NCBI RefSeq assembly: GCF_036588685.1
Contig: NC_086375.1
Location: 68,076,001 to 68,140,000 of the forward strand
Source: Mytilus trossulus
Lineage: Eukaryota
DNA length: 64,000 bases
Direction: 5' to 3'
Within the stretch, counting starts at the first letter, position 1, and each line of letters begins with the position of its first letter. The position numbers were made by a program, and so were the translations under genes. Positions 10,071-58,375 of this stretch are shown piece after piece. The notes below the pieces were generated by a model, which made no database searches, was not told where the DNA came from, and saw nothing but the letters and a program-made list of their open reading frames with translations.

Positions 10071-11620
10071 TATGACATAAGACATATCAACTTTTAAACT
10101 TATAAATGTTGAAGGCTGTACTTAAACCTATAATGGTTTACTTTTTAAATTGTTACTTGGATGGAGAGTTGTCTCATTGGCACTCACACCACTTCTTCCT
10201 ATATCTATGACATGACATATTGACCTCTAAATGTATGTCATAAGACATATTGACCTCCAGATGTATGACACATTGATAACTAGATGTTTGGCACATTGAC
10301 TTTTAGATATATGACATAAACCTTATTGAGCTCTAGATGTATGACATAAGATATATTGAGTTCTATATGTATGCCATATTGATATCTTAGTGTATGACAT
10401 AAGACATATTGACCTCTAGATGTAAGACACATTGATCTCTTGTTGTATGAAATAAAACATATTGAACTCCTGATTTCTGACAGACATATTGAGTTTAGAT
10501 GTATGACATATTAATATCTTGATGTATGACATACCATACATTGGTCTCTTGGTGTATGACATGAGACATATTGACCTCTAAATGAATGACATAAGACATA
10601 TTGATCTCTAGATATATGACAAAAGACAAATTGATGTACAAAATATCAAGTTCTAGATGTATGATAAAGGATATATTGAGTTCTAGGTATGAAATTTTTA
10701 TCTCTAGAATTATGACATATTATGTCATATTGACCTCTAAATGAATGACATATTGACCTCTTGCTGTATAACATATTGATCTCTAGATAAATGACCAGTC
10801 ACATTGACCATTAGATATATAACATATCGATCTCTTGATGTATAAAATACCAAATGTAATCCTTAAGATAAAAATCATAGATGTATGACATATTAATCTC
10901 TTGATGTATGACATACCATACATTGGTCTCTTGATGTATGACATGAGACATATTGACCTCTAAATGAATGACATAAGACATATTGACCTCTAGATGTATG
11001 ACAAAAGTCATATTGACCTTTAGATGAATGACATAAGTCATATTGACCTTGAGATGAATGACATAAGACATATTGACCTCTAGATGTATGACAAAAGTCA
11101 TATTGACCTTTAGATGAATGACATAAGTCATATTGACCTTGAGATGAATGACATAATAAGACGTATTGACCTCTAGATGTATGACATAAGTCATATTGAC
11201 CTTTAGATGAATGACTTAAGTCATATTGACCTTTAGATGAATGACATAATACATATTGGCCTCTTGATGTATGACATAAGACATATTGAACTTTAGACAA
11301 ATGTCATTAGACATATCAACCTCTAGATGTATGACATTAGACATATTGACCTCTAGATGAATGCGTAAGACAAATCGACATCTAGATGTATGACATGACA
11401 TATTGACCTCTAGATGTATGACATAGGACATATTGACCTCTACCTGTATGACATAAGACATAGTGACCTCTACATGTATGACATAAGACATTTTGACCTC
11501 TAGAAGTATGATATAAGCCATATTGATCTTTAAATGCATGACATAAGACATATTTACCACTAGATGTATGATATATGACAAATCGACCTCTAGATGTATG
11601 ACATAATACATATTAATCTT
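10067..11620. repeat. About 30-bp minisatellite (unit catattgacctctagatgtatgacataaga) with shorter variants
   Basis: Dozens of copies; explains the repetitive ORFs at 10811-11611. Confidence 0.93.
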
Positions 11621-14794: not shown

Positions 14795-16986
14795 TCAACA
14801 GTCTGTGTCATCGTCATCATGTCCGGACGTGGAAACTGACACACGAATGTTTTCTTTATTTTCAATTTTTACCGCTGGAATAATATTATTGTCACTGTCA
14901 GTATTGAAAATTACATCTGTTAAATTATTGGGGAGTTTGATGGAATCCGGAGACAAACCGAGACCATTGTCCTTCCCGTTGGCAGTATATGGAGGTGGTG
15001 GCGTTGAACTACGACTTGATGATTCTGTCAAAGAATGTAATGACTGCAGTGATTCAGAATTGTCCGACAAATTTGCTAAATTTTCTCTTGCTCGAAAGAA
15101 ATTTGATTTTTTCATTCCTTTTTGTTCACTTTCATCTTCATTGATACTATCATTTGATGAAATGATATCTTCATTTATACTGGAATTAATGGTATCGCTA
15201 TCATCAATAACATTATGGTCTCGCCAATCTTTAACTGAATCATCCTGTGGAATATCAGAAAATGATCCTGACCTAACTAACCTTTTACCTGACCAATCTA
15301 ATGAATTGTCAGTAGAATCTTTCGTCACATTTCCTGTGAAAGAACCTGTTCTTGTCATTTGCAATGTATTTTCATACTGTTCTAAATTTCCAATTTTATC
15401 AAAACAAGACATTGTCCTCAAAACAGATGATGATTTTGAATCAACAGTAACTGTTCTCACTGATCCAGTAGTATAATCATCCCTCACTTCAAAAGCTATT
15501 CCCCTTTTTTGTGAATCCTTTTCTTGTTTTGATTTTTGGCTCATTTGAGTTTCTATATCATTTAATTCATTCATAGATATATCGTAGGACATACCACTGA
15601 TTGATTCTTTTGTATTCCTGCTAGGGTATGGTGTAGAAAACAAACTAGGGTTTGATGATGTCACATTAAAGTCAACTTCTGAGGTATTTTGTAATTTTGA
15701 TTCATTTTTTTCATCGCCAGAGCTTGAAAATGATGAACTGCTATTGGATGCTTTTATTACTGTATCATTACATACATCTGATCCTATACTTGAATTTTCA
15801 CCATTTTCGGTTGGGGAACCTTTAAATGCTATCAGATTTGATAATAACTGACCAGAAGAATCTTTCTTTGAATGCTCTGGAGTAATAAGTTCCTCATCAA
15901 CAATAGGTCTATTATCAGGAGTTGACGGTCTCAGAGTACTTTCCATATCTGATAAGCTGTAATCCACAAGTGTAAGACTACCGATATCAGGTGAGGACCT
16001 TGAGGTATCAGATTTTATAGTAATGTCCACATCACTGAATTCAATTTTGTCACTCAAGACTGAAGTATTTCTATCCTTAATTGCAGGTGTGATAATTTCC
16101 TCTGATACCTCATCTATATATACATAGGACTTTGGTTGTGATTCTGATAACTGTACGTCTGATTCGGTGAACACTTCCTGTACTTCAATATCTGGTGACT
16201 GTAATGAACTAACTCTTGGACTGATAGAAATGTCACTGGACGATACACTGCTACCACTAGACCGATTCTTTTTCCTCCTTTCTGGTTTGGTTGGAGCAGA
16301 TTTTGATTCTACAACAACTGTATCCAAGTCTAAAGAACCTACTGATTTAGGAGTTTCAGTGAAAGAAGTTTCAGCAGATGAAACAACAACTTTACTATTA
16401 TTTGAGTCATCATTTGGATCTTCATAACTTAGTCTCAACATATCTAGCTTATCTTGTTCATTCAGTTTATCAAACAAGTTTGCAGCAAAAGCTGTTGCAT
16501 TTGACGTGTCATGTTTTTCATTTCCGTCCACCATATCTACAGTGACTGATGGGATATTAGTTGGTTCCCTCTCTACTGTCACTACTGTTTCTTTGAAGAC
16601 CTCCTCACCATTTGTTAACTTTAAATCATTCTTACTTCCATTTTCTTGAATTGTCGGGAAAGCTTCCCCTTTACCAGAGAAAGATGGTGCCGCTGATGAC
16701 CTTTGATGATTTTCCTTCTTTTTTTCTGGCCTCATTTCACTAAAGCTCCTTTGAGGCATTAATGTAGAATCTTTCCTTATTTTCTTTAACGTATCCATTG
16801 ACTGACTTCTGTACAGAGGATGACTGAGAGTAGACGGAGACTCGCTGACACGACGGTCTTTACGTACAAGTTTCTCTTTTTGTAATGTGACTCTGACAGG
16901 GTAGGGTGAGGCATAACTAAGAATGGTAAGTGCATCTTCATACACCATGTTCTCAAAGGAAATGGTTACACTCAAAATACGATCCC
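14795..16986 (-). CDS. Gene 2 large terminal exon: PDZ C-terminal half plus about 690 aa acidic Ser-rich tail
   Basis: Lies within the 752-aa ORF 14795..17053; tttttcag acceptor at 16987-16989; ends HDDDDTDC*. Confidence 0.92.
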
Positions 16987-19900
16987 CTGAAAAATAAATT
17001 GTATACAAAATTAGAAATTTTATACACAAAGGAAAGAGACTCATTGAATGCAATGTTGCATGAATAACTTGATGTATATATGCTGAATTATTTCTCTATT
17101 TACAAATTATTTCCTTTGCTTTGTTTGTTTTCCTGTTAGTTAAGACAAATATGTTTATGTATCTTCTACCATCTAGGTGGTCTTGTAGAAGCCTGCATGC
17201 CTTAATAACAAGATAGTTGATGATTGGTTTGATCCCTAACCTGGTCCAACAAAAGACTTAAAACTTGGTATATGATGCTTTTTAACTAAGTATGCAACAT
17301 AAAGAATTGAGAGCCAAGACTGTTTAGCTAATTGTTAGAATAATGTGTCTTGGCAATGTAGGATGTCTTTTTGCAGACTGTTATCTTGTGAACTAACACA
17401 TTAAAATCCAAGTAAGCATTTTGCTGTTGCCTTACCAGACTCAAATTTAACACTCATAAGAAAAAAATATTAACATCATGCAGTATGGTACATTTGGATA
17501 AAGAACATAAAAATACAAAGAAGTACTGTGGATCTGTATGTGCTTATTTTAGTGTGTTTCTTAATACATCAACTAACTTTTTATCTCTTACATTTTTTTT
17601 TTTTATACTATGTAGATAACATTTGGAAAAAAATAAAACAAAATAATTAATTTCATATTCCATATCTTTCTGATAGATTTGCTCATGTAACATCAAGAGA
17701 CATACCAACTTTAAATTGTCCTGATTCTACAGCTGGTCCCCTGTTGTGAACCTGACTGACAAATATACCATCTCTCATGCTACCAGCTATATTAAATCCA
17801 AGACCTATGAAATCCTGACTCTGCAGCCATACACTGCTAACCTCTGGGTCCTGAAAATAGAAACAATACTATCTTGACCTTTTATTCTAAAATTTAGATT
17901 TTTGATGAAAACATATCTTTTCTGCATGGCCTTGTTTATCTGTGGTACCTGAAAGTATGATGATTCCATCTAGATTTATAACAAGAATGTGTCCCTAGTA
18001 CATGGAGGTATTGATTTGATACCTATAGAATTATATAGAAATGATTTACTTTTAAATGTTTTACATAATTTATTTAATAAGTGTTTTAAGGTGGTAGACC
18101 TAGGTTAAGGGTAATAACTCTTAAAATCATCAGTACGTTTGTGTCAGCCATTTTCATAAACATGTTCCAAGCTTCTAGGATACATAGATTATTTTCAATC
18201 TGTTTCAGGTAAATGCTTAAAATACATCAATAAAACTTGACTATTACAAACGCATCACTGAATTAAAGAGTTATCTCCCTGGACCAAGGTCTACCCCCTT
18301 AAATTTGGGAAAAATCCCCTTCATGTGGAGAAAAGGGATAATAACACCTATACCTAAGTGTTCTACAACAGACACTCGTGATCCTTTTTCATATCGGGGC
18401 ATTACATTGTCACCATGTAGCTATAAATTATTTTGTAGCATTTTAAATAATAGAATAGTATCTTGGTTAGAAACTAAAAATATTTTATACGATGAGCAAA
18501 ACGGATTTCGGGGGGGTAGAAGTACTATTGACCATTTGAGTACGCTAACATCGATTATTGAAACCAGAAAATTACGAAAATTATCTACGTTTACAGTGTC
18601 AGTAGATTTTAAAAAGGCATATGACACAGTTAATAGAAATTTATTGTTTAATGATCTTAATGATCTTGGTATAAGTAAACATTTTTTGTGTGTTATTAAA
18701 GCTATTAATTCTCAATTTGAATGTGCTATTAAATTAAATGGGCATATGACTGAATGGTTTAGTGTAAATTCAGGCCTAAAACAAGGCTGTGTTTTGTCGC
18801 CAATTTTATTCAATATTTTTATAAACAGCTTAGTTACAAATATTAAAGCATTAGATATTGGTATTGATATTGATGGTGAAAAAGTTGGCATTTTGTTATA
18901 TGCAGACGACATTGTACTGATTGCAGAGAATGAAAGCGATTTGCAATTACTCTTAGATGTTTTAAATATATGGTGTAAAAATAAGTTATTAAATGTTAAT
19001 CACGAGAAAACTAAAATTGTACACTTTAGAAATCCTTCTGTACAGCAGACAACAACAGTGTTTTTATTTAATGATAAGCAGATATGTATTGTACAAAGCT
19101 ATCAATATCTGGGTTTACTATTAACTGAATTTTTAAATTATGATGTAATGGCTAAAGCTGTAGCCAAATCAGCGAACAGGGCATTAAGTTTGATTATTGT
19201 AAAGAGTAAGGCCCATGGAGGTTTCCAGTACAGTACATTTAATAAATTATTTGATAGCCTGGTCTGGCCAGTAATAAGTTATGGTGCAGCCATTTGGGGC
19301 ACCAGAGATTTTTCATGTATAAATGCTGTCCAGAACAGAGCTATCTGGTCTTTTATGGGTGTGGGTAAATATACCCCAAACGATGCAATTCAAGGGGATA
19401 TGGGCTGGAGACCTCCAAGTGTTAAGCAGTGGACTTGTGTTTTTCGACACTGGGCTAGATGTAACATAATGTGCACAGATAGATTAAATTATAGAATTTT
19501 TAAATGGTGTTATAGAAATGCTCTTAATAAGAGAAGAAATTGGTGTTTTAGGATTATGTCTAAGTTTAAAGAATGTAATTTAGATTTGTATACTGATTTA
19601 AATAATGTACTGTGTAAACAAAATATTATGCAGATAGAAGAATTTTTACTTGATAAGTATATAGAAAATTTGCAAAATAGAATATTAACACAAGATGTTG
19701 GTAAAAAATTGCGGACTTATAAATTGTTTAAAGACAGTTATGGTAGTGAATTATATTTATCTAAAACATTATCTTATAGATATAGAAGTGCTTTTGCTAA
19801 ATTTAGATGCGGAGTAGTTCCGTTGAGAATTGAAACAGGGTGGAATGAAAATAAAAATGTAGACGAAAGAGTGTGTTTTATGTGTTTTATGTTTAATGAT

Positions 19901-22900
19901 AACATAGAAGACGAAAAACATGTAATACTATCATGTCCTTCATATGCACATTTGAGCTTTTGTTTATATAGCGAAGCTATGAAATATAATGTAGATTTTG
20001 ATGATTTGTCTGATGATGATAAATTTGTTTATTTATTTAAAAACATTAATTGTTATGATATGGTTGCCAAAACCTGTTTTGATATTTTAAGTAGAAGAAA
20101 TACCTTTTTATATTCTTAAAATGAAATGATTTTAATAATCGTATGTATTTTAACTAGTTTTATATAGAAATGGTTTTATAGTCTCTCATAATTCTTAATA
20201 GAATGGTACTTGTAATTTATATTTGTGTATTGTCTGTTTTATATTGTGTATATACTCTGTATGTACTGTATATTTATGTATTGCAAGTAGTGAGACTTTA
20301 ATAAAATATTGAATCTGAATCTGAATCTGGATGCCCAATCTGCACTATCATTTTCTATGTTCAGTGGACCGTGAAAATGAGGTAAAAACTCTAATTTGGC
20401 ATTAAAATTAGAAATATCATATCATAGGCAACATGTGTACTAAGTTTCAAGTTGATTGAACTTCAACTTCATCAAAAACTACCTGGACCAAAAACTTTAA
20501 CCTGAAGTGTGACAGATGGACAAATGAAAGTACAAACGAACAAACGGATGAATGAACGAAGGAACAAATGAACAGATGCACAGACCAAAAAACATAATGC
20601 CCATTAAAAGGGCATAAAAAGCATTTCATTGGCTTAAATTTCTAAATGTTTACCCCAACCAGTTAAACTATAACAAACTACTCTGATTTTTATAATCTAA
20701 TAGAACATTCAACAGCCTTCTCTATTCTACAAACAAGCAGGATACACTGCATAATGAATGAATTGGGTTTGCTGACAAATTTTCTTAAAGAAGCCATTCT
20801 TGGGAAGCCAAAGCAAGCAGATTTCTGAAACACATACCATCTGTCTCTTATCTTTGAACTTGCATTTTTTCTGTGAATAAAATATTTTTAATAAAAAAGA
20901 ACATGTTTTCCCTCTGAAGCAACAAATCTGTACATAGCTTGCCTTTTATTCCTTTATGAGAATAAATCTCATATTACAATCAAATTATCAAAAGTCAGTA
21001 TTCATTCCTAAACCTAAACACTAAGTATCTATTTAACAAACAGAGTATATTCAATTGTGACATACAGAGGAAAATATTGACAGTTGTCACCTAGGTTCTA
21101 CATTTATCAAATATGTATGAAATCAAATCGTTCATTAATTTTGAAGGCTTTCCTACTTTATTATTAGTGTTTACCCTATTTAAATTGTGAAGGACCTTTC
21201 AATACTGATAAAATTGAAGAGGTCTCCATTTATAGATGATATGTTATCAATGATTTCTTGTCTTTTTAGTAGGTAGTTGGAATTCCTGTGTGTGAATAAT
21301 CCTCTTTAAAAATTGGCCTACTGTTTGAAGTAGGTATTTAATTTGATATTTAAATAAAAGGGACATTATTCATATTGTCATATTTCATTCAAAAGATGGT
21401 TTATTCAGTAAAAGTGAACAGTGGAAATTGTAACAATAAATAGTTAGGCTGGTCCTTCAACTACTAAGGTTTAATCTAAATTTACTGCTATGCTATGCAT
21501 TAAAATCAGAATCTCTTAGCAAAATATCTATAGGTTCATTCAAGTATTAACAAATCTAGAATTACCAATATTTTCCTGAATACACTATGTTGCTAGATCT
21601 CTCAAAGGTAAACATGAGGCCTGAAAAATACTGTTATCAAGATCACTTACCACCTGGTAAAATTTTTAGGTCAGACCTGGTCTTTAAAGATCAGTAATAC
21701 TCCAAAAAATTATGTTAAGGATAATTGAATAATTTCAATGTTAGCAAAGAAAACATTTTAACTATGATCATTATGAATACAGTGATCTTAAAAGGGAGAT
21801 AACCAAAACTGATATTTGTTCCAATATATTGTAGATATCCTATAGGTATCTAAAATATTATACTAAGGCTTTTTCAATGTTACAGTCAGTACTAAAAGGT
21901 TCTACTCTGTAAACAGAACCTTAATAGTATGTTAATTAACACAAATACCATGCAAAAGGATCTGAGCTCAAAGAAAATCCTACAGTTGATTCCATGTATT
22001 ATATTTGTCAAAAACATCTCTTAGTATGCAATAGCTGTTTTATATAAATGGTCATGTATTTTTTTACCTTTTAAGTCTATAAAAATATATAAATTTCTAT
22101 AATGACCTCATAAATTAAATGTGAATTATGTTTGTTTGTTTGCATCATACGTATATATAATGACACATACTGTAGAGAGGAAGGTGTAAACAAGCTAAAT
22201 GATAAATATTGACTTAGAAACCTAATTTGTCCTGATCTATTTAATTTTTATTTGAAAATTACATAATGAGTCAATCTAACACATGAAAAACTTATATACA
22301 AATTAACTACAAGTTTATTTATTCTTTTTAAAGTCCATTGTTAACAACACTAAGAATGAGGGAATTATAATGGAAAATCTACATTTATGTACCAGCTTTA
22401 TAGGAATTACATCGTTTGAATTGCATTTTCCGTCTTTTTAAGCACTTTTTTCAATTGTCACTAACATACTTCAAAAATGCTCATCCGGATACAAAAGGCA
22501 TCAATTTAAACTGAAATATATATCCACCCTTCCTTTAAGAAAAAATATTTACATAATCAATGTAAGATCTACCTGAAAGAAGACCTTTTATGTCTGTTTA
22601 TCCTCTCTACAAAGAAAGTTGTTTTGTCTGCTTTACATATACGGTACACATATTTTTCAATACTGAAAACAGATCTGTGCATGCTTGCTTTTAGCAAGTT
22701 ATGTGTGGTGACCAGTCATGCTTTTTCATAGATTTAGCCAAAAGAAATAAGAATGAAAATGCTAATGTTAGTTATGATTAAAAGCAAATAACATGTGAAA
22801 ATTAGAAATTTGGACTGTCATTGTACTGTTTAAATCTTGTTTATTCTTAATTTTCAAACCAACTAGCAGAAACTTTTGCTAACTAGAATAAAATAATTTT

Positions 22901-25900: not shown

Positions 25901-28900
25901 GAAAGTTAATTTACTTGCCATTCATAGATTATACATGAACGAGACAACAAAGATGGAATTAGAACCACTCCTTGTACAGGCTCTTCATATATGCTATTTT
26001 CACAATCAATTATAATCAATTTATCAGTTTTTATGACATTCAAAAGTTTATGAAATTTTTATTTAGAATTGTATAAAACAAAATCAGTCTTCTGAAAATT
26101 CTGTATATATAAACCCAATTATATACAATTTAGTATTAGAATATGGTTTTTGACTTGTTTAAAGATCTATCGTAAGGAAACGAATGACCATTTAATTTTT
26201 TAGTTAGGGCTTATGATTTTGATGAATCCAACAAAGTATCTTTTTTTATGCTGTGTGAAGCACACATTTTTTTTCTTCTTCAAAGTTGGGAATCATAGTG
26301 GTTTTTTTTTAGAAAATAACTATAAAGAATTACTATTTGACTCCTCAGATTTTAATAGTTGTTTCTTTAAAATTACTACTCAGATGACTTTAGCTAGTAT
26401 ACCACTACGAAGGGGTTTCACATTATCTACAGCCAAATAAGATTTACTTTATCCACCAGGATATACCTGGTTATCATTGGCAAGCTAATTTCCAAAACCT
26501 GTGAATCAGACAAGGCATTCAAAATTCCACAAACCAACACAACTATTTGCTATGAAATCAGGACTATATATGTAGGAGTTATTGGACATGTTGGAATATT
26601 TAAATGCAACATTTCAAGAATTCCCCAAATAATATTGAATTCTTTGCCTAGTTTGACCAATATGAGGAATTCCTCTTAAACATAAAAAGTGATAATGTGT
26701 AAAGATCTTATTAGATGGTGCTAGGTACAAAACAATCAACCTTATTGATTTGAATGGTGGATCCAATACATTCCAGAGGTTAAGCCTGTGTAATACGATT
26801 ATAACAACCATCACAAAGGATGAAACAAATATCAAACCATGACCTTATCAATCATCAGATCATTTCAAATCAATGTATAAATTATCAATATATGTACTTG
26901 CTACAGTACATTAAATGATTCTCGGTTGCAAGAATATTCTATGGTAAAGTTCCACTATTTTATAAGGTATGAATAGCATATAAGAGATGGGGTATACATC
27001 ACTGAAACAGCAACCAAATCTTGAGTACATCATATGGTCTTAACAATTAATCAGATGTTTATATCATATCTCAAATCCTTAATTGTACAAAATATTTAAC
27101 ATGGACAACCAAAGATGCCAATAACCATAACATTATCTAAATAACAAAAAACATTTTGGATATAACACACCACTGACAAGGTTCCTTGACTTAGGGCAAG
27201 CACAAGAACACGTAGAAGGGTTGTGTTAGTTTCTTGACATCTCAATCCCTCTCCACTCAATCTTGATTGATGGAAAATAAAAATCAGGAAAAGCACTTTT
27301 AAAACTCATGAAATAGGCATAATAGATGACATATACAACCATAACACTAACTAATGATAATTTATCAAAGAACAGTAGAAGTTACAGAATGCAAATTCAA
27401 AGTACATAACCTAATAAAACAGCTATTTATAGCTTGCTGTTGGGTGTGAGCCAAGGCTCCATGTTGGAGACCGTACTTTGACCTGTAATGGTTTACTTTT
27501 ACAAATTGTGACTTGGATGGAGAGTTGTCTCGTGCCACATTCTTTTTATATTTAATTCCTAAAAATTCGAACAGAAAAAAAATCTGTTATTATCTGTAAC
27601 TCATTTGTCTGAGTTCTTCTGAGTACAGAAAAACAACAAATGTTATGAGACAAATATTTGTGTTGTACATCCCAACCTGTTACAGTTATTTGTCTTTCTG
27701 TCACTTGTGGGACATGATTTTACAAAATAGCCTTAATATAGTACAGTATTTCCACTTGTAGAGCTATGCATATAACCGGACAATTTAACATTAGATGAAT
27801 GGGAAATGGTTTTGTGCAGGAGAAAACTATGCAATTAACCGAATTATGCTATTAAGCGGTATGCAATTAAGTGGAATCGACTGTAATGATAAATTCTTAA
27901 GAGTTGTAAAAGCCAAGTAATCTGAAAAATAAAATGTTACCAGGTGTCTTTCTTGTAAGATTTGTGAATGAAAAATGTGAAGTGCATGTTATTTTAAAAA
28001 GGAGAACTTTTCAAAACAAAGTTTATATAAAAGTTCAAGACTAAAGTCAAGTAAGAGATTTTGTCAAGGAAAAGGCACATATATGGAGCATTTAGTTTTT
28101 CCTTTCTATATACTTATACACTTGTATTTTTGTTTTTGCACATGTAGTCTGTTGTCCCACATATTTCTTTCATCTGTTTCTTACTATGGATAAGTTCTGA
28201 AACCTTGACAGCTACAATCAGAATATACAGCAGCTGGCAGAAATACAATGGACAGTTAACATTATTGTCTATTGTTTGTTATAAACTTACCACTCCAAAG
28301 AAGGTATCATCAAACGACCCAACTGATCCATTTCTCTGTATGCCTGGTGGAATGTCTGATGTTGGTAGTGATGACCAGGGCTTATGTGATGGTCCCTCAC
28401 CAATAGATGACTTTGGAGACTGGAAAACAAGATTATATATCTATACAATTACACACTTGAATATTTCAATTAAGTTCAATATGTGACACTATCAACACAT
28501 TTCAGTCATTAAAATTGCATATGAAAATCAATTTAAAGGTGACTCCTGTTATACAGATACACATTGCAGTAATTATATAAGTTAAATGCTATTGGTAACA
28601 TGGGAACTAACAGTGAAAGAAAAACTAACTTCAATCATTCAACAAAGAAAATAAGGTCGACATCAGATGTTAGACTGACATATACACCTTATAATGATTC
28701 TATAAACCTAAAATTTGACCAAACCAAGAAAAATGCTGATTGTCAATTATGAGAATTCAATTTGCTGAATAAAAAATACATGCAATATAGCATCATTGTT
28801 TTCCAAACACTTACTCAACTCGGGAACTTAAATTACGATGCCCCTAAACGCACAAATGACGTTCATTAAAACCAAAGTTTTTGACGGAAATGCATCTAAC

Positions 28901-31900
28901 TTGAAAGTGGTCTATTGACATACTGTAAAAGCATATATTTTTGGTTGCAGTTTCAATTTACCATTTTCCCAAAAGAAATTGTAACCTTCAAAAAATATTA
29001 CTTTCACATACATGTACATGCAATAAATCCATAAAAAGTTAATTCCAATGAAATCAAATTTAGAAACGATAACACTAAAATTTAATCTAATGTTTCTTCA
29101 TAATATCCGATACCCCAAATTTTTTTTCCATCATTTTACATTTTAGGCAGAAATATCATAGATAATTTCCAAAATTGCAAGAGCTCTAATGCCAAAATCT
29201 ATGTTTGTTATGAATATAAATAAAAAAGCTATCCATGTAAAATTTGAAGCTGACATAATAATTAGTTAAATCAGTTCTTAATTTCATCAGGAGGGAATAG
29301 AAATGACTGATATTAGCCCTTTAATTTCAATGTTCATACACATGTATAACCAGAAGAAGTGTTACAATCAGTCAATGCCTTAGTAACCTTTGCTGGAAAG
29401 TTAGATTCCTGGAGCTAATTATTTTACTGAACTTTTTAAACTAATACTGATATAAAAAACATCAAATATGAATACTGAATTCATTCTCAATAAGGTCACA
29501 TCTACATAATTAGGTTATTTTTATTGGTTTTTAATATTTCATAAAAGTCATGTATTAATTATTAAATGGTTCTTTGAATGAAAAATACAAAAATTCAGCC
29601 ATACTTGTAAAATAAATTTTAATTAAATCTTATGAAAATCACTACATGTCTAAAAGGCCATACTATTTTGCAATAAATAAAGAAAAAATAAACCCTACAA
29701 ATCTTATTCTACAATGTGTGAGTCTTCCAAACAAATCTTATTCTACAATGTGTGAGTCTTCCAAACAAATCGTATTCTACAATGTGTGAGTCTTCCAAAC
29801 AAATCGTATTCTACAATGTGCAAGTCTTCCAAACAAATCGTATTCTACAATGTGTGAGTCTTCCAAACAAATCGTATTCTACAATGTGCAAGTCTTCCAA
29901 ACAAATCTTATTCTACAATGTGCAAGTCTTCCAAACAAATCTTATTCTACAATGTGTGAGTCTTCCAAACAAATCTTATTCTACAATGTGCAAGTCTTCC
30001 AAACAAATCTTATTCTACAATGTGCAAGTCTTCCAAACAAATCTTATTCTACAATGTGTGAGTCTTCCAAACAAATCTTATTCTACAATGTGCAAGTCTT
30101 CCAAACAAATCTTATTCTACAATGTGTGAGTCTTCCAAAAAAAAGTTTGTGTTGTCAGTCTTGGTATTGTGAATCCTAAAAATCAACCTGATCGAAAACA
30201 TAGAATGCAGGCAGAACTTCATGTACTGTACAAGAATTTGTTCCATTCTGGATGAAATCTGCCCAACTGTATTCAAGATGTTGCAGATGAATAAAATGTG
30301 ACACAGACAATGCAGAAGTTGATGATAAATGACACAATAAGTGGTCCTTATACAACACAAAAAAGCCTGGTGTCATGCCAAACCACTTAATATTTAATTG
30401 AAATGGAGGGATGTCGATTTTTTCTAGTTAAAAAAAGTAGAATCATTATGGTGAAATACATATTTATTAAAAAGGTATTATTCTCAGGATGTTAACTTAC
30501 CAAAACAAGATAATTTGTACTTAAATAATTAAACGTGATCAATGTACAATAGATCACTTAGTTAACTTATTCTTCTCAATCAAAACACGTTTTTCTTTCT
30601 TCTCAATCAAAATACCAAAAAAACAGAATCTTTTACAAGATTTTGTGACTTCGTAAACAAATATTTAACCTTTGATGATGTGTTTATAGCACAAAGCATT
30701 ACAGATTATGACAAATTTTCACTATGTGACCACACAAATCTAGACATTAATTGCAAATTCTTGACACCTTATAAATTATACATTACATCACCAAAGAAAA
30801 TAACAAATACTGAAAATGTATTCAAATCATATTAAAAGTTTCACTTGACCAAGTTTATAACACTTAACATGCTAATGGGATAAACGCACTCTGACCTTGA
30901 GTTTCTAAATATATAACAAGTTACTTTATGTTCTGTTCATTTTCAGAACAAGAAAAAGAAATTGTCATAAAATTATTTTTATTTAAAATGATTTTAATAT
31001 ATGAAATAAAAAATTGCCCCAATTTTTATTAGGTTAGGCTTTGATGGACTTCGATGTGGAAATTTCTGGAATTTTTCCTCAAACCATTAAAAGTATGTCA
31101 ATTTGTCTGTAAAACTCTAACCTAATAGCCAATGATGATTAAAAATCAATCATAATTCAAGATCATTTTAGTTTATGGTGTACTTTAGAGGAAATTTATC
31201 ATCCCTTAATGCAAATTTGGAGTAAAGCATAAGATAAAAGAAAGAAATGTCATTTAACACTGATAATGAACATCTGTATCCTAAAATTTAAAACTTTTTT
31301 TCACTTCTAGAAATGAATATCAATAAAAAAATATATATATTAATATTATGTTGATAGTCCTTTATATAAAGCTTTATTACAATTTACATAAATTTAACAT
31401 TAACCAAAATAACTAAACATTGACCAATGAACCATGAAAATGAGGTCAAGGTCAGATAAACAATGCTAGACAAACATGTACAGCTAACAATTCTTCCATA
31501 CAACAAATATAGTTGTTAAATACTTATTGCTTAATAGTTTAAGAAAAACAGATCAAAACACAAAAACTTAATACTGAACAATGAACCTTGAAAATGAGGT
31601 CAAGGTCAAATAAAACCTGTGCAACTGACATAAAGATGATAAAATATTTCCATACACCAAATAAAGTTGACCTATGGCATAAAGTATTAGATAAAAAGAT
31701 CAAAACTCAAAAACATAACTAACTACTGAACCATGAAAATAAGATCAAGGTCAAATGACATCAGCCAGCTAAACATGTACACCTTACAATCATTCCATAC
31801 AACAAACATAGTAGACCTATTGCATAAAGTATGACATGTACACCTAACAGTCCATCTAACAGTCCTTCCAGACACCGAAAATATTCTAGACCTATTGCTT

Positions 31901-34900: not shown

Positions 34901-37900
34901 GCCTTTTAAGAATGACCAAAGGAATATTATCACTTAATACAATATTTAAAAAGAAGATGTGGTATGATTACCAATGAGTCAACTCTCAATAGAGGTTGAA
35001 CTAAAATAACAAGAAAAGAGCAGTCAATTTAATACAGCAAAATATTTTTTCTGGTTTTTTTAAGGCACTGTCAGGTTTGTTTGACCTGCAAGGTTTTGTG
35101 CCTATTTTGAAATGTACCAAGAACCCATAACTTTTGAATAGCAAAAGTGAAAATCATTTATTTGAAATTGACCTAATACCAATATATCAAAGTTTGCAAA
35201 GCATTGGTTGGTCAAACTGAGACAACATATTACAGTGCAATTTTAAAATTTATCTAGGACCATTACTCTCAAACAGTATAAGTCAAAATCGTCAAAATTA
35301 AATTTCACCTGCATTTTGTTATCACTAACACAATATCAAAATTTGAAAAAAAAGCATTGTTTGAAGGGTTCATAAGTTATTGCAGGGAAACAACTAAAGT
35401 GCCGTTTTCCAATCTATAAAGGAACATATCTCCTTTTTTGCATAATTTTAAATTATTAATTGACCAGTGAATGTTTCTGTAATCAGACTGGAGTACAAGC
35501 TAGCTAATGCCATATTTGTTATCATTTATTTAACAAGGTCACATGAATATTCATTACCTTTTTCTTGGCAGGTGATGTGTATTCCTGACATTGTATGTAG
35601 CCACCAACACCTACAAAATAGTAATGATAAACATGTTTATAGTTGTGTCATGACTTTAACAATCAGTAATAAGAGATATAGTATAATAAACAGCTTTGTC
35701 TTTCCTTTCCTGCCATTAACAGGTTTTTATTAATACTGACATTAAGTGGCTGGTGCAATGCCTTATAACAGACATAACAAATTGTTTGTTGTTTTTTAGG
35801 CCTTAAAAAGCCTAAACATGCAATAAATTAAGTGCCAACAAGGGCATACGGCCACAACTTTTATACTTATTCATTTCCTGCATTTGGTTTCTCCTTGAGG
35901 ATCAACCTTCACCAATAAATTATGTGGGTGGTGTTTTCTTGCAATTATATTATTTATGTACCTAATCTTTGTATGTTCATGATTGAGAAACTAGTAAATA
36001 TATTAAATCTGAGTTACTGAATCATCCAATGTGCATCAATAATTCAATACTTGAAACATGAAGAAAAAATCAATTTTCCGCAATTTTATTCAACATGTGA
36101 AATATATTTAGTGGGCAGATAATTTCCACAGGTTTATAGGTTTTAATAACACAAATCTACTCCTACATAGTATTTCTGATATCTTTGCTTTATGGAGGGA
36201 TAAAAGTAAATGTTAATCATTTCTCTATATAATAGAAAAAACAAAGAATATGGGGTTGGCAACTTGCCATCAATTAGACAAAATTAGTGCACTCATCCAA
36301 ATAGGAAAGGAACAGTGCTTTTACCGATGTTCTTCATCTTAAAGTTACAGTGAGGCATTGACACAGGGCAAATAGAACTCTCACCACACTGCAAATTAAT
36401 AAAGATGGGCTCTAGCACCAGTTTAAGTGGCATTCTGTGCTCTAAATGTTTGCCTCAATTAAATGATGTCCAAAGTATTGTAAGCCATTAGATATTTTCC
36501 AAATATAATTTCAGGATTTATCCTATATTTACAGAATCATGCATATTGCCTAGCCTGAGTTGCTAACTTTTAATTTAATGTATCTATTGCGATCCTTTGG
36601 AACTCTTAACATTATTTTTTTGAAAAAAATTCAGCGAGTTTTCATTTCTTTTTTTTAAACTTGTAATTAGGTGATGAAATTCACATGTAATGAACAAATA
36701 CATGCAATACATCAGAAGTTTGGTGAAGTGATAACTTGTATATCAATGATACAAGGTCAGGACAGCAATAATCATGCATGATTATTTAGGTATGTAGGTC
36801 GACTCAATCTTCCTGACAGCAAAATCTTATATATGTTGTCAACTTCATTAAATATTAAAATAAATGTTAAATATATGCAGTGCTATATCACATTCAGAAT
36901 ATTTCTAATTCTTCACAAGGATAAAATATGTTACATGTTTATAACAATTCCTTGGATGTTTGTTGTTTGAATAAGATGTGGACACAGAAGTATGTCTCAC
37001 CTAACTGCACTAAAGACTGCTTAAAAGGTTGTTGGTCTTTCCATTTGTATAAAATGTACTGTATAAATCTAGAGGTATACTAATATTACTGCAACCTCAA
37101 TAAGTGCAGGTTTGGTAAGATTTGTAAAGCTTGCTTTAAGTGCTGCTTACAACTGACGAACAATTGTAATACTCTATATCAATAGATCTTCTGAAGAAGG
37201 TTTGATATGTAAATGCAAAAGCAAGTAATTCTTGAAACTAGCACAACCCTATATGGTACAAGGTTAAACTTTCTTTCTGAACCTGATAACACCCTTAAAA
37301 AGAAACCCCCCATCTATCTACTACCACCTAAGGATGGACTGCCTATGCACCTTTATTGGTTTAGCACACCACATCAATGTTTAAAATATTTGTAAACGCA
37401 ATGTTAAAGACAACGTGACCCAACAAAATGTCATTATCCTCAACAGCTGGTGTAGGTTTACAACCTAGTCATATCTCATATGTCAAACTTACTATTGATA
37501 TTTTACTGTAAAAATTGTTATGACATAATTTTAAACCAGTGTAAAATGTCTTGCATTGAGAACGGGAAAAATCATTTCTTGTTTATATCGATAATACATA
37601 AAGAATTTGGTTTTGATATTAAATGTTGACAGACTTATTCTATGTTACCTTGAGAAATGACAAGTTTTAGCAATGCAAAAAACTGCCAACAATTCTTTAA
37701 TCTTATGATTTTTAAAGGATAATTTAAAATCAAGCAAAAATAGGAAAGCATTGTTGTATGACAATAGTAAAAGGAAAAATATTTGGTACATTCTTTAATT
37801 CCTTTAAAAAAAAATAATTAAGCATTATGAAATTCCATCATATTATGTAATGCATAGCAAAATTGTTTAATGTTTCTTCCCACAAACCACAACCATAATT

Positions 37901-46900: not shown

Positions 46901-49900
46901 AGTACACTGATAAACAGGCTTCCCAATCAAGAATTGAGAAGGAGAAACTCGATCATTTATTTGAGAAGTGGGCTAAGTTCCAATCTGGACAGATAACAAG
47001 AGCAAAATGTGTTCACTCATTGGGCTTCAAATATCAAGCTGAAACTGACCTGTAATTTTGATGACAGTACTTGATTTTATTTCTTAAGAATGTTTACTTG
47101 TAGCTGTACATGAACTTTTATACACATATCTAAAATGTGCTATGAAATGAATGTGCTATGAAATGAATGTGCTATAATAGATTTTTAAACTTTTAACCAT
47201 AAAGAATGAGGAGGGAAGTCATAGATATAAAAAAAAAAGCGCAAATGTCCTATGTAAAAAGCGCAAATGTCCATTTTTAAAAAGCGCAAATGTCCTATGT
47301 TTTGAAGCGCAAGTGTCCACAAAAAAAAGCGCAAATGTCCTATGAAAAAGCGCAAACGTCCCGTGCCGATTTTTATACTCTAATTCTGATCCATGGTTCC
47401 TTCATTTTTTTCATCAATTATGAAGGGTGAATATTGAGTGCTAATGGTATATGATTACCAAAAAATGTCTGCATCAACAGATTTGACAGGCTGTTCTAAC
47501 TTATTGTATTACAAAATTAACACTATTCAGTAATTTTTAAATGCCCAGATTGTGACAATCCTATGCTAACAATTTTTTTTCTTCTTGTATTTCTTCATTT
47601 TAATAGTTGACAGTAGTATATTTTTATGGACAATTTTTATGCCATGACAATTTAAGCCTCGTAACGAAAAATACTCTACCTTACTACAAAATGTAAAACC
47701 AATTTCTATTTTTTTCTTCAGAAAAAGTACTCATTATTTATTAGGGGCCAGCTGAAGCCCGCCTCTGGATTTGGGATTTTCTCACTGTATTGAAGAAACA
47801 ATAGTCCCCTTATGCTCTTTGGTCACTTTGTCTCATTGACACCTTCTCGATTTCATTCTAAGCGAACGTTGCTCTACTCTTACAATGTAAGTAAAATTTA
47901 AATATATACATGTATAACAAATCAATTTCATCTTATCCGTATCTTTTTCTTAGATTTTCAAGTATTACATCTCAGTTGACTCTTAATACTGTAATGCATG
48001 TGACATTGCCCTTCATACAAAACAGGAGATATGTAAGTAGGGTGTATATAAATTTACCTTCTTCTGCTAAACTTATATCTGCAGGAATGTCACTGTCATT
48101 GAAACCTGGATTGGTATGTCCTCCATCAGGTGATGCACTATCTCTCTCTTCTACTAATCTGTTCTTTTTTATTGGTGTAGACTGGGGCTTTAAAATATCT
48201 ATAATAACATTGATATATTTTAAATTAAAATTAGTTCATAAATAATACACCATAAATTAATGATCAGGTGTCCATTTCACAAAATAGAACAATTCAGTAT
48301 ACTTACAACTAATCTCAGTCATAAGTTTTTTGGTGAAATGGACTCAAGGTATCTGTATATAGCAGTAAATGTATGCTTAATAAGAAAATGCAATGAACAT
48401 AATGCTGCATTTCTATCATCACTGTCATGTTAATTTCTGCTACAGTAATACAACCAATGGATATACATTCCGAGTATTTGTATCTTCATGGAAAAATTGT
48501 TGATACAAAAAAAGAAGCTTTAATACACATTATTGGGAATCCTAGCTGACCAGTCTTTTGTCTTAGTCTTACTCTGATGTACTCACTCATAATCATTGCT
48601 TGGCAATGAGACAATAAACACCAAAATAAGAAATCTATGGATAATTTTGCATGTTTAATTTTAAAGCAAAAAAATAAGTCTGTGTTTCAAATTGCAATCA
48701 AAAAATTTGTTTTTAGCCAAAAATACCAGATACAATGATTGAGAAATAGTAATATTGTAAAATTTATCAATTACAATGTATTCTATTAAGCCAAAAAGAA
48801 AGATGTGATGACAAGTAAAGTTGTTTGTCCTAGAAATAATATTACTATATTAAAATTCACAAGAGAAACAACAAGGTTAATTAAAGGCCTGCAGGCAAAA
48901 TCATACTTCCACAATACCTTGTAATTTAATTAAAGTGTTGACAATTTTAGATGTAAAAGCGGAAGCTTGAGACAATATGTTTTAATTGGAGAAATAAATT
49001 GCCTGCATAGTGTCAAATGTTTTGTATGCTTAATAGTAAAGCTCTCTGTGTAGCCAACAGTATAGAATTTTTTTACAAGCAAAAAAAAATTGCTTCAAAA
49101 CAGAGCTACAATGTACAAGTTGTTACATCCTTATTATTGGTTGCATGTACAAAAAGCTGATACAAGCAAAAATCATATCAATAATGGATAAGACCAAAAC
49201 TGAGTCAGGAATATAAAAATGCAACATACTCTGATATACTACACGATTCTTTATTTCTAGAACTGATATCATTTATCTAACAATTATTTTAAAGCAGATG
49301 CTATACTGGGACAAAGTTCATAAAGAAGATATGATCAATAAATTTATGTACCAATGTAGTGTACTATACATGTACCATATTTGCATGCATTTATAGTTTT
49401 CTTTTATCTAAAAGTATAATTTTTCATATAATTTGACTACTTATTGGTTAGGGACCAATACATAGGCTATTAATAAAACCATTTATACCCAATTATACCT
49501 TTATTTACACCATAATGCCATAGCTGTAATTGAATATCCTTCATTTATTATATTTATCTTAAATTTTTAAGGTCAATTCCTTTACAATCTGAAAGGGCAA
49601 CTCTTTCCAAACTACAGAAAGAAATTATTTTGCAAAAGCCATAATGTAACTCAAATAATCTACCATCAGGCTTACATGTATATCATACACTATTTTACCA
49701 ATCCAAAATGAGTTGTATTACTCTGCAAATATGAAAATTCTTTAAAAAGAATAGGATATAAATTATAAAACGGTTAGCTTTAATTTTTAAACCATATTAT
49801 AGCAAGGTTGATTTCAAAATAATAATTATGTGAAGTGCAATATTTATTTACAAGAAAAATATGTGCCTTCCTCCCTCTCAAATGAATAAATCTACCATAC

Positions 49901-52900: not shown

Positions 52901-54052
52901 TCTTTCGTTAAAAAACCCCGAATGGTAAGCTACATGCTTTATTAATTTAGGTCAAATTTTTTTGTACGACGTTTTAAGACGCATTGATATAAATTGTCCG
53001 GCCTTATTCGTGAAACAATATGACAGTAAAACAGGACCCATCCATCAGAAGTCACCAAACAACATTTGATGTGTCCAACACGACAGTGAAGGCCTCGTTG
53101 ATGCCATAATCCTCCTTATTTATTGCAATATTAGATAACACACAGACATGCATACATGTATACATGTACATTTAGTAGCATTGTCGGTACATGATAGGTC
53201 ATTTCAATTAAAATAAATAATGTGTGTTGGAATGGTCTTGAAATAATTACTGGTTGCTGTTATGAAACTGGCAAACCTCATTGTCTTCGTATACAACTAG
53301 AAAGGTGACAAAAATAAAGTGTATTCAAATTTCAAAGGGAACCCAAACTGATTTTTTTTTACAATTTGGTACAATCGTTTAAATATTGCGAATAAGATAG
53401 AATTAATTGTCTTCATATTTATTTAATTTGTTTACGTCGATACTATTGAGGAAAAAAGATACAATCAAAAGTTGAAACGGCCTTCCTTTTTTTTCTATTT
53501 TGAAATAACAACAAAATGATATTCATTCAAGAACGAGATTTAGAGCGCGTCGCTTGAAAAATACCAACCTGTATTCAGAATAGAAGTTATGGATATTATC
53601 GGTAATTATATATATATATAATAACGAAAATTGAGATCATTTTGCAGACTTGTTCGTCAGGTGTCAAGTATTTATCATGCAGTGTGTTGTAAAAAATCTA
53701 TGTATTTTTTTTTCTTTTTAAAAAGATCCGATACATGGTCAAGAGGGTATAAAAACCAGATTATGAAATATTATTTTCAAACTGGATTGTTTAGATGGGT
53801 TTTCATTAGTATCTTTTAACATCTCATGACACCACAGTTAATTATATTTTCTGAATAATAATTCTTACCTCTTCTCCTTTTCCACAGTATAAAGAAAATA
53901 ATTCCAAATATCAGTAAAACAACAGCTAGTGTACTAAAAACACTAGCCACAACTATAACAGCAACACTTGGTTGTCCACTACACTCCTGACACTGCACTA
54001 TTCCAAATAAAAGAATTACAACTAAAACGCATAAAATATTAAATCTCCACAT
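14795..54052 (-). CDS. Type I single-pass membrane protein with a cytoplasmic periaxin/AHNAK-family PDZ domain and long disordered tail; complement(join(14795..16986,17706..17850,28291..28419,39680..39708,48058..48198,53869..54052)), about 939 aa
   Basis: Six exons with canonical AG/GT sites whose phases chain (1,1,0,0,1) into a 2820-nt open frame. Signal peptide MWRFNILCVLVVILLFGIVQC; TM VAVIVVASVFSTLAVVLLIFGIIFFILW followed by KRRR; PDZ GLGFNIAGSMRDGIFVSQVHNRGPAVESGQFKVGDRILSVTISFENMVYEDALTILSYASPYPVRVTLQK. Confidence 0.8.
17706..17850 (-). CDS. Gene 2 exon: N-terminal half of PDZ domain (GLGF loop)
   Basis: DPEVSSVWLQSQDFIGLGFNIAGSMRDGIFVSQVHNRGPAVESGQFKVG; ttttcag acceptor and gtatgt donor. 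Confidence 0.92.
18007..20327 (+). mobile_element. 5'-truncated non-LTR retrotransposon (L2/RTEX-like) with RT ORF 18305..20119
   Basis: RT motifs YRGITL, QNGFR, DFKKAYD, GLKQGCVLSPILF, YADD, YLG; C-terminal LRIETG..C..C..EDEKH...C; AATAAA at 20300 and a (GAATCT)3 tail. Confidence 0.92.
18090..18298. mobile_element. 209-bp MITE with TTAA target-site duplication (Kolobok-like) inserted in the LINE ORF
   Basis: TTAA at 18086-18089 and 18299-18302; TIRs ggtggtagacctaggttaagggtaataactc and (reverse complement) gggggtagaccttggtccagggagataactc. Removing it restores ...LFNKCFNLGKIP... Confidence 0.88.
28291..28419 (-). CDS. Gene 2 exon (SPKSSIGEGPSHKPWSSLP...SFDDTFFGV)
   Basis: ttttccag acceptor (an alternative in-frame acceptor lies at 28440); GTG|gtaagt donor; phase 0 to 0. 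Confidence 0.8.
29698..30137. repeat. 34-bp minisatellite, about 13 copies
   Basis: Unit caaatc(t/g)tattctacaatgtg(tg/ca)agtcttccaaa. Confidence 0.95.
31330..32310 (+). mobile_element. Degenerate non-autonomous element with internal core repeats (HINE-like)
   Basis: Recurring gaaccatgaaaatgaggtcaaggtca at about 31430, 31583, 31728 and 32105; (gccact)n near the 3' end. Confidence 0.6.
34277..34481. repeat. 30-bp minisatellite with palindromic core tgttacaatgtaaca, about 7 copies
   Basis: Unit gtgttacaatgtaacatttagtgtttaaca. Confidence 0.9.
34584..34708. mobile_element. Long imperfect hairpin (Crypton-like element core)
   Basis: About 54-bp inverted arms around the loop gctcggcacagcctcg. Confidence 0.6.
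38530..38750 (+). mobile_element. Solo 3'-terminal fragment of the Penelope-like family
   Basis: Matches 60040-60250 (acatgtggagcaggat.tg.ttac...ggagcac...tctttagttttct...catttttagccatg). Confidence 0.75.
39680..39708 (-). CDS. Gene 2 putative 29-nt micro-exon (ENVKPTPEKN)
   Basis: Pyrimidine tract with catcag acceptor; gtatgt donor. It supplies exactly the phase 1-to-0 bridge needed between the flanking exons. Confidence 0.6.
43196..43644. mobile_element. MITE with TIRs, containing a 48-bp retroposed insert
   Basis: Ends tggtcctagaccacaatt and aattgtggtcttggacca. Confidence 0.7.
46305..47368 (+). mobile_element. Internally deleted Mutator-like (MULE) DNA transposon
   Basis: TIRs (g/c)ggcac.ggacgtttgcgcttttt; 8-bp TSD atttttat; subterminal ggacatttgcgctt repeats; broken coding remnants WRCTVKNCNARIQT...H (FLYWCH-like) and FADYL..W...RTTNGPESFHAHYN. 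Confidence 0.88.
48058..48198 (-). CDS. Gene 2 exon 2 (juxtamembrane; DILKPQSTPIKKNRL...HTNPGFND...AEE)
   Basis: ttattatag acceptor; AAG|gtaaat donor; phase 1 to 1; open frame. Confidence 0.78.
51268..51535 (-). mobile_element. 3' end of a 5'-truncated LINE
   Basis: Minus strand encodes KLIQLLSVHNVKELNNLGKFLFNIEK, followed by a UTR, AATAAA and a (TAT)n tail. Confidence 0.6.
51543..51598. repeat. Three 18-bp repeats (taaagtgcga.gg), probable DNA-transposon terminus
   Basis: ctaaagtgcgatggtact-like unit repeated three times, ending in ggaacag. Confidence 0.55.
53869..54052 (-). CDS. Gene 2 first coding exon: signal peptide, short ectodomain and TM helix
   Basis: ATG at 54052; two hydrophobic segments; KRRR stop-transfer; GAG|gtaaga donor. 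Confidence 0.82.
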
Positions 54053-56460: not shown

Positions 56461-58375
56461 CCTTTTGCCAGGAAAAGACTTCAGGACACAATTTCGAGTA
56501 AAATTCTGATTAGGAATTTGTATCACCCTTACAGTCCTTTCAGGATCAGAACATTTGTTCCGAAGTTAAGTGAGGTTATCCGACAGAAAACCCGGAGTGC
56601 TGAAAACGGCGGTTTTCGGGTCATACAGCGAGCTCTAACACTTTTTATGATAAGAAATCGGGGATAGGAAGATACCCAAAACCAAATGAATGTCACTTTG
56701 ACAGTAAAACTTACTGTTGCAAAAGACGAAAAGATACTAAGGGAGCAATCAAACACAATACCGGGTACGTCAGGCAACATGCACACAACACAATGACCAA
56801 ACGAATGAAAAATGAAAAAAAAACCCAGACTAAAACAGCCTACAAAAAATCCGTGACACAGATATTGAGCAATATGGACCCCACCAAAACATTGAAGGAA
56901 ATAAGATAATCCAAAAGGATCAGTATGTGTTTTTCTATTATATTTTTCTCTCATCAAAATGAGAGTTGACGGTTATTTGTTCATATTTCTTATTGTGACA
57001 AAGGAGAAAAATCACAGTACAATACACAACCCCTCTTAAAAAAATAAATGAAATTGAATGAAACTTGAAGTGATTGATTGGTATCTATAGCTATTTCTAT
57101 TAGTAAGCGCTTGAACAAAATAAAGTTTGGCATCAGCTGATCTCCAGAATCAATGTCTCTATAGATCTATTCTAACCAGAATCAGGACGATTTTAAAGAT
57201 ACGCCCAACTAATGGCACACAAGATATTACATGGACTATTTCAGACTGTATACATTGATTGACTGTTGCTTGCATTTATCTAGTGAAAAATGCACATCGA
57301 AGACGAAAACAAAGCAACAACGACCAGCATATACAAAGACCAATTTGGATTGCCAACAGCAAATACGGTATGTTCGATATGCCTTTCAACGGTGAGCCTA
57401 TTTGACACATCAGAGATGCACGGGTTTTTAACGTGCATGCACTGTGCACGGATCATAGGATTAAATGCGATCATTTCTACAGGACGTGACTGCGCATTCA
57501 TACATCCTGAACAGCCAATCAGACATCCCACTCTAGCGATGGATTACTGCAGGACGGGAGAAGTTAAAGGATGATTTGTTTTTATTTCACCTTTGGGGTC
57601 TGGGTTGTATGAAATCGTTATATATAAAAGTATTACATCGTGCTGTAAGAGTCCTTATTATTAAACATCTATACCTACTTTTTGCCATTTTATAGCTGGC
57701 TAAACCTCTCACTTGTATGACAGTCGCATCAAATTCCAATATATTGACAACGATGTGTGAACAAAACAAACAAACATAATAGGTACAAATTTCATAAAAA
57801 GGGGTACAGCAGTCAACATTGTGTTATCCTTTTAATCACTATAAAACAAACAAATATATGTACAGAGCCACGTCATATGCATCAAGAAACACAAAAATGC
57901 ATATAGTCAAAGGACATTAGCAAAAATGAAAGACAAGAATACAAAAAATATTAGAACAATAACATAATGAGGGATAAATAAGTACCGAGTCACGTCTAAT
58001 GGGTATCATAAAAACAGACTTAACATTCATAAAGGCAAATAAAAGAATAATATAACACGTTATTAAGACGATGAACAACGTCAGTAACCAGAACCTATAC
58101 TTCAAGACCATCGTGTACTATATGTGAAGTTGTTACGGAGTATTATCAGCAAGGTCTTGATAACTTCCGATAAACTTTTTTATGAAAAGGACATACCTCT
58201 GGTTCATCAACTTTATGCTCAGACACAACTAGTTAAAACATATTTAAATATATTTATGAGACTCTTGTGGATTTGTACTCAAAATTCAATTTTGTACGGA
58301 CAATGAGTTCAGTTTAACAAAATTTGTAACATACTACAAATTTAAAATTTTGTCATACAAAATTGACTTTTGTTA

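Follow-up and report, generated by a model that had tools for sequence, protein, structure and literature searches.

A stretch of 64,000 nucleotides of the Mytilus trossulus genome (NC_086375.1, positions 68,076,001 to 68,140,000; hereafter the window) contains, at 16870..17850, a PDZ domain which a sequence-only reading, produced by a model from the letters alone, had ascribed to the type found in periaxin (PRX) and AHNAK, scaffold proteins of vertebrate nerve sheaths and membranes. The question raised by this locus is which kind of protein carries such a domain in a mussel, and how it is related to the vertebrate ones. The domain belongs to the six-exon M. trossulus gene LOC134712218. Sequence comparisons indicate that PRX and AHNAK are very probably its closest relatives, and the product is best described as a membrane-anchored variant, likely part of a protostome orthologue group of PRX/AHNAK. 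It was filed as a variant and not as periaxin itself, because the anchor, the GLGF loop and the absence of repeats in the mussel protein do not fit PRX/AHNAK.

The recorded protein of this gene (P0004, 947 residues) is reproduced exactly by six GT-AG exons, running on the minus strand from 54052 to 14795, the last of which comprises 730 codons. The two halves of the PDZ domain, which spans about 17850-16874, are encoded by exon 17850-17706 and by the beginning of exon 16986-14795, and are not contiguous in the DNA. Contigs of all four public runs analysed, three of them presumed to be RNA and one of unstated type, none being recorded as RNA, join exactly across the 719-nt intron between the halves, and contigs of three of the four also join exon 5 to exon 4 (28419-28291). 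One contig of run X5 connects exon 4, at 28420, to a 40-nt stretch near 30272, where a weak GT donor is present at 30267; this join may mark an alternative 5' exon of an isoform devoid of the transmembrane (TM) segment, or be due to chance. A second copy of the gene was not found in the same genome, where the next match had an expectation value (E) of 0.006 (17 candidates scored). The sequence-only reading had placed the PDZ domain, and had missed the predicted signal peptide and TM helix, the protostome-wide range and most of the 54052-14795 gene.

A homologue search with the C-terminal PDZ half returned 83 proteins from 86 candidates, and the family analysed below comprises 198 members, counting near-duplicates, in which the PDZ is complete. 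The mussel domain is a real PDZ, matching the Pfam model above cut-off, and its top two matches in the PDB are AHNAK2 (4cn0, E 1.2e-11) and periaxin (4cmz, E 1.4e-11); the same two chains are also the top two for the nematode and Daphnia proteins. Of the AHNAK/AHNAK2 pair this comparison covers AHNAK2, no solved AHNAK chain being among the matches listed. A broad family profile assigned 69.6 bits to 4cn0 and 65.4 to 4cmz, versus at most 47.5 for other single-domain chains; over the family profiles as a whole the AHNAK2 and periaxin chains scored 61-70 bits, and were outranked only by a multi-PDZ chain with summed domain scores. On the family profile no canonical PDZ (DLG, SCRIB, MPDZ, GOPC) scores above 39 bits per domain, whereas members score at least 90.

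The canonical domains share with the family the PDZ fold and the GLGF loop, but carry an N/D-G turn in a loop which is one residue longer. The distance from the Gly of the GD motif to the Ala of helix alphaB is 19 residues, with no N-G turn, in 196/196 scorable members; in other PDZs it is 20 residues in 94/106 and 19 in 1/106. PRX and AHNAK2 align with the family without gaps over this shortened loop. The sequence-only reading had reported both a replaced 'VNG' turn and a canonical GLGF loop, and had cited a periaxin motif, which agrees with chain 4cmz; both features are borne out family-wide, a GLGF-type carboxylate-binding loop being kept in 192 of the 198 members, whereas that of 4cmz and 4cn0 is degenerate. 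The first residue of alphaB (alphaB1) is Tyr or Phe, rather than His, in 189/195 members; together with the few two-hybrid preys of the worm member given below, this lends no support to the reading's further suggestion of an ancestral peptide-binding state.

The reading had also proposed a PDZ phylogeny as a check, which was carried out on family members and multi-PDZ domains. In a tree based on 99 columns, 21 diverse members fall into a single clade (100/100), to the exclusion of 51 domains taken from 6 of 39 multi-PDZ proteins, and the branching roughly follows the species tree. The family also differs from multi-PDZ scaffolds of the MPDZ/PATJ/DLG/SCRIB kind in being single-PDZ, a second such domain being detected in 0/198 members. 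As leads only, a chordate 'Periaxin' cluster of the ESM Atlas scored 0.93, as did a generic cluster of chordate PDZs, and arthropod clusters scored 0.89 for the N-terminal part.

Sequence rank and loop length are joined by a third line of evidence, the position of the intron. Intron 5 of human PRX is reported at c.184/c.185, i.e. in codon 62 (PMC12617670), and the corresponding Gly62 can be placed at the GD of 4cmz via the primer frame given in that source and residue R82. By this placement the mussel intron interrupts the same Gly in the same phase 1; the comparison covers PRX alone. The phase-1 intron is family-wide: among 56 metagenome loci, 18/18 N-terminal halves end in G-GT, as donors, and 45/45 C-terminal halves begin after AG-G, as acceptors, while in three loci the halves run on continuously and another locus gives no information. 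Similarly, continuation into the Asp was seen in 0/80 N-half protein fragments. In a rough control, 89/95 Mytilus PDZ exon matches span the site and only 4/95 have an edge near it. Rank, loop and intron together uphold the assignment of the domain to the periaxin/AHNAK type.

Named members were found in bivalves, gastropods, a chiton, a cephalopod, a brachiopod, an annelid, a rotifer, a priapulid, a nematomorph, nematodes, tardigrades, chelicerates, myriapods, crustaceans and insects. Identity to the mussel PDZ ranges from 43 to 71 of 86 residues in the eight members checked. No vertebrate, fly or moth protein was named among the matches listed in three homologue searches and one profile search, two of which covered the best 120 of 440 and the best 150 of 2181. 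Several members are automatically labelled 'periaxin', 'Prx' or 'AHNK2-like' in databases, and no paper on the family or on its worm member T19B10.5, discussed below, was found in main texts; the literature searched does not extend to most subscription journals and bioRxiv supplements, where a PDZ survey may mention family proteins. PDCP-1 of M. coruscus, considered as a possible relative, was set aside, being a different, PDLIM-like protein as described in PMC7573561.

Ahead of the PDZ, the mussel protein has a hydrophobic segment (residues 1-21), about 8 polar residues including Cys24, and a hydrophobic helix (about residues 30-56) followed by KRRR, the two segments having hydropathy peaks of 2.4 and 3.0. 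A model of the full-length protein contains helices at 2-19 and 30-64 and a confident PDZ, with 684/947 residues below 50 in predicted local distance difference test (pLDDT). The predicted signal peptide and TM helix very probably constitute a membrane anchor. Signal cleavage would occur after about residue 21, giving a type I topology, and the product is predicted to cross the membrane once, with hardly any of it exposed outside and with the PDZ and the long tail on the cytoplasmic side. The same signal/TM head is found again in members as distant as nematodes, rotifers and insects. After setting aside 37 members with fewer than 100 residues ahead of the PDZ, 161 could be scored, of which 143 contain a TM segment; a Cys just before it is present in 140 of these 143, and a loose NPxF/Y motif after it in 116. 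Residues C24, N91 and HPxYRS are nearly invariant in a 41-sequence alignment. Small TM adaptors of the CD3-zeta/DAP12 type have a tiny ectodomain with one Cys, a single TM and cytoplasmic motifs; the likeness in minimal Cys-bearing ectodomain and single TM is an analogy only.

The tail of the mussel protein, of about 690 residues, is non-repetitive and made up for 72% of disorder-promoting residues, with small helices predicted at residues 381-404 and 689-708. With periaxin it shares the arrangement of one PDZ ahead of a long disordered tail, which is encoded for the most part by one large last exon; the mussel protein differs in the predicted signal peptide, TM segment and NPxF motif that precede its PDZ, in retaining GLGF, and in lacking both PEVK repeats and the PRX intron after codon 127. 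The vertebrate PRX/AHNAK proteins are not known to have a membrane anchor, and the predicted signal peptide and TM helix make up the chief difference between them and the mussel protein. In the AHNAK2 and AHNAK genes one large exon is reported to come after a set of small ones (PMC10682155), an arrangement also seen here; they differ from the mussel gene in the length and repetitiveness of the tail, and crustacean members come closer to them in this respect.

Two stretches of the tail were observed to be conserved among molluscs. In the region about 15150-15530 (minus strand) the pattern W[ST]GxRLxRxxSF occurs in 39/186 proteins and an IAFEVRDD-like one in 31/186. At 14798-14842 (minus strand) the protein closes, as mollusc members do, with a short strand-like motif, then an acidic run and finally a Cys. 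A [DE]C terminus (DC or EC) is present in 36/186 proteins, and an alternating-hydrophobic C-terminal motif is only mildly enriched (49/187, versus a 12% background). The acidic, Cys-ending terminus is a possible PDZ ligand or lipidation site.

In two crustaceans, Daphnia sinensis (P0188, 3688 residues) and Macrobrachium (P0431, 3431 residues, named 'AHNAK-like' at NCBI), the shared membrane-anchored head is followed by a giant tail. KMPK-type motifs are typical of AHNAK repeats; using a pattern chosen after the Daphnia sequence was seen, 54 were counted in this protein, versus a mean of 1 and a maximum of 6 in shuffled sequences, within tandem units of about 95 residues. The published PRX motif [KR][AGLV]P[DE] occurs 10 times in Daphnia and 11 in Macrobrachium, versus shuffle means of 1.6 and 1.2 (maximum 6). 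A published pentapeptide pattern is enriched in Daphnia (35 versus 15.8) and not in Macrobrachium (8 versus 10.7). No match to any solved AHNAK peptide was found for a 500-residue stretch of the Daphnia tail, nor was there a Pfam repeat family for it.

The likely C. elegans orthologue is T19B10.5, an uncharacterised gene. The assignment is made from primers only: in translation, the primers used to clone it read VGVQL and SVSDSD, which match the C. brenneri member at both PDZ ends. In a two-hybrid screen, supplements 2 and 3 of PMC3091786 list four single-hit preys for it (tgt-1, col-10, rpl-9 and atn-1), which are too weak to use; the 2010 table of the same source contains no experimental Gene Ontology annotation for this gene.

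Vertebrate periaxin ties the membrane to the cortex indirectly, by means of DRP2-dystroglycan, beta4 integrin and ezrin. The PDZ domains of PRX and AHNAK2 are described as intertwined dimers (PMC7072810, section 2.7; PMC8833689), and periaxin connects membrane complexes with the cytoskeleton by way of its tail. The invariant short loop points to a similar swap in the present family, and a dimer formed by PDZ domain swapping, perhaps aided by disulfide bonding of the only Cys on the outside, seems moderately probable. The NPxF motif and the short tail motifs would recruit PTB/FERM-type or cytoskeletal partners, so that the dimer would tie the membrane directly to the cortex as a membrane-anchored scaffold; for this cortical role the chances appear evenly balanced. 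Taken as a whole, the interpretation of LOC134712218 as a membrane-anchored protostome orthologue of PRX/AHNAK, acting as a scaffold which pairs through its PDZ, is considered reasonably probable.

Several observations weigh against this interpretation, and have to be compared with the alternatives which they would favour. The likeness to PRX/AHNAK may be convergent, or derive from an old paralogue, the mussel protein belonging to a separate protostome PDZ family. PDZ trees on 99 columns hold little signal and, as the present one has no vertebrate row, the case for orthology is built on rank, a single indel and a single intron. Neither a deuterostome invertebrate nor a cnidarian appears among the named matches listed (best 120 and 150, as above). 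The architecture differs in its predicted signal peptide and TM segment, and most tails lack repeats: the PRX motif occurs 0 times in the mussel protein, and at least three KMPK-type motifs are found in only 6/246 family proteins, for which reason convergence of low-complexity repeats is possible. Since best-match rank from three phyla, the shared indel, the shared intron and PRX-type repeats in two crustaceans all agree, a separate origin is nevertheless regarded as quite improbable. It could also be argued that the membrane-anchor exon is mis-joined, or that the predominant isoform lacks the TM segment, as vertebrate periaxin does. Read-supported joins are limited to exons 4-5-6, the junctions of the TM exon resting on the gene model, and the signal peptide and TM calls come from hydropathy and a model. 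Furthermore 18/161 scorable proteins have no TM, a 779-residue M. galloprovincialis model begins at the PDZ, a TM-less isoform model exists in Macrobrachium, and the contig joining exon 4 to the region near 30272 points, weakly, in the same direction. Against a mis-join stand the exact reconstruction of the 947-residue protein from six GT-AG exons, five further Mytilus records of about 947 residues, partly from separate annotations (four in the cluster, plus a 950-residue M. coruscus protein), and 13 Logan proteins, on contigs of 3-6 kb, with TM and PDZ in one reading frame; the probability of this alternative is rated as very small.

A further alternative accepts the common ancestry and concerns the mode of action. 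With a canonical GLGF loop, unlike PRX/AHNAK2, the PDZ may act as an ordinary peptide-binding monomer, within a TM adaptor which captures the C-terminal tails of its partners; swapping would then be confined to vertebrates, having been acquired as their GLGF loop degenerated. Ligands would possibly be acidic, given the Tyr at alphaB1, and in molluscs might include the protein's own acidic Cys-ending tail. The retention of the loop (192/198) and the Tyr/Phe at alphaB1 (189/195) favour such a module, Tyr at this position being a class III PDZ preference, as in nNOS; so does the [DE]C end in 36/186 proteins, acidic Cys-ending PDZ ligands being described for CaV2 channels (PMC7456537). Searches with the AlphaFold monomer model of the domain retrieved canonical PDZs, reaching Z 8.5 with 60-70 of its 86 residues matched, and the full-length monomer model superposes on canonical PDZs with Z up to 10.6 and a root-mean-square deviation of 2-3 A; 4cmz and 4cn0 are not among the fold matches listed, a comparison which sets a monomer model against swapped chains. 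On the other side, the shortened loop common to the swapped PRX/AHNAK2 domains is fixed in 196/196 members, both models are least confident exactly in that region (pLDDT 59-65), and three of the four single-hit preys of the likely C. elegans orthologue have no consensus C-terminus. A purely monomeric module is held to be rather unlikely, though a serious rival in view of the kept GLGF loop, and pairing through the PDZ is preferred.

The features of LOC134712218 are collected in Table 1.

Table 1. Coordinates of the coding exons and protein features of LOC134712218 within the window
Feature	Position	Strand	Basis or remark
Coding exon 1, residues 1-61: predicted signal peptide, ectodomain, transmembrane helix, KRRR stop-transfer	53869..54052	-	hydropathy, model, alignment
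Coding exon 2, residues 62-108; NPGF (NPxF/Y-like) motif at 91-94	48058..48198	-	N91 nearly invariant
Coding exon 3, residues 109-126	35558..35610	-	gene model
Coding exon 4, residues 127-169	28291..28419	-	contigs of 3/4 runs join exon 5
Coding exon 5, residues 170-218: N-terminal PDZ half with GLGF loop	17706..17850	-	contig joins
Intron, 719 nt, GT-AG, phase 1, inside Gly218 of 'GD' (GDRIL)	16987..17705 (17705-16987)	-	contig joins, exon model
C-terminal PDZ half, residues 218-255: PRX/AHNAK2-type shortened loop, FENxxYEDAL motif	16874..16986	-	alignment
HPLYRSQS motif, residues 273-280, 3' of the PDZ	16799..16822	-	found in 179/198 members
Ser/Asp/Glu-rich tail, predicted disordered, residues 256-947; acidic stretch and terminal Cys at the end	14795..16873	-	same large last exon

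Other elements were observed in the window. A C3HC4 RING finger exon followed by a stop is located at 5187-5411 on the plus strand (PF13920, E 7e-16) and forms the 3' end of an adjacent E3-ligase-like gene, which faces LOC134712218. Within intron 4, antisense to the gene, a frame of 632 codons at 18221-20119 (plus strand) encodes a reverse transcriptase of the long interspersed nuclear element type (PF00078, E 1.6e-36). Two open frames at 58260-59761 (plus strand) resemble retroelement remnants, with an RY(x)DD-like stretch recognized by eye and no Pfam match. Tandem arrays are found at 10212-11614, 29697-30143, 60441-61341, 986-1305 and 1957-2380, with periods of 30, 34, 21/42, 52 and 71.

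Homology to PRX/AHNAK was already implied by the automatic names of some members; the membrane anchor, the shared intron and the repeat-tailed crustacean forms are new. A single-copy family in at least eight protostome phyla would date this PDZ type before vertebrate myelin. Tentatively, the ancestor of PRX, AHNAK and AHNAK2 might have been a single-pass membrane protein with a swapping PDZ and a giant repeat tail, all three being kept by crustaceans, while molluscs would have lost the repeats and vertebrates the anchor. If this were true, the vertebrate proteins would today be linked to the membrane by complexes of dystroglycan, integrin and annexin, and C. elegans T19B10.5 would give a first genetic access to the ancestral function. 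The family would offer a natural version of the domain with an intact GLGF loop, in which it may be asked whether swapping and peptide binding coexist, and would single out a worm gene, so far unstudied, for knock-out experiments.

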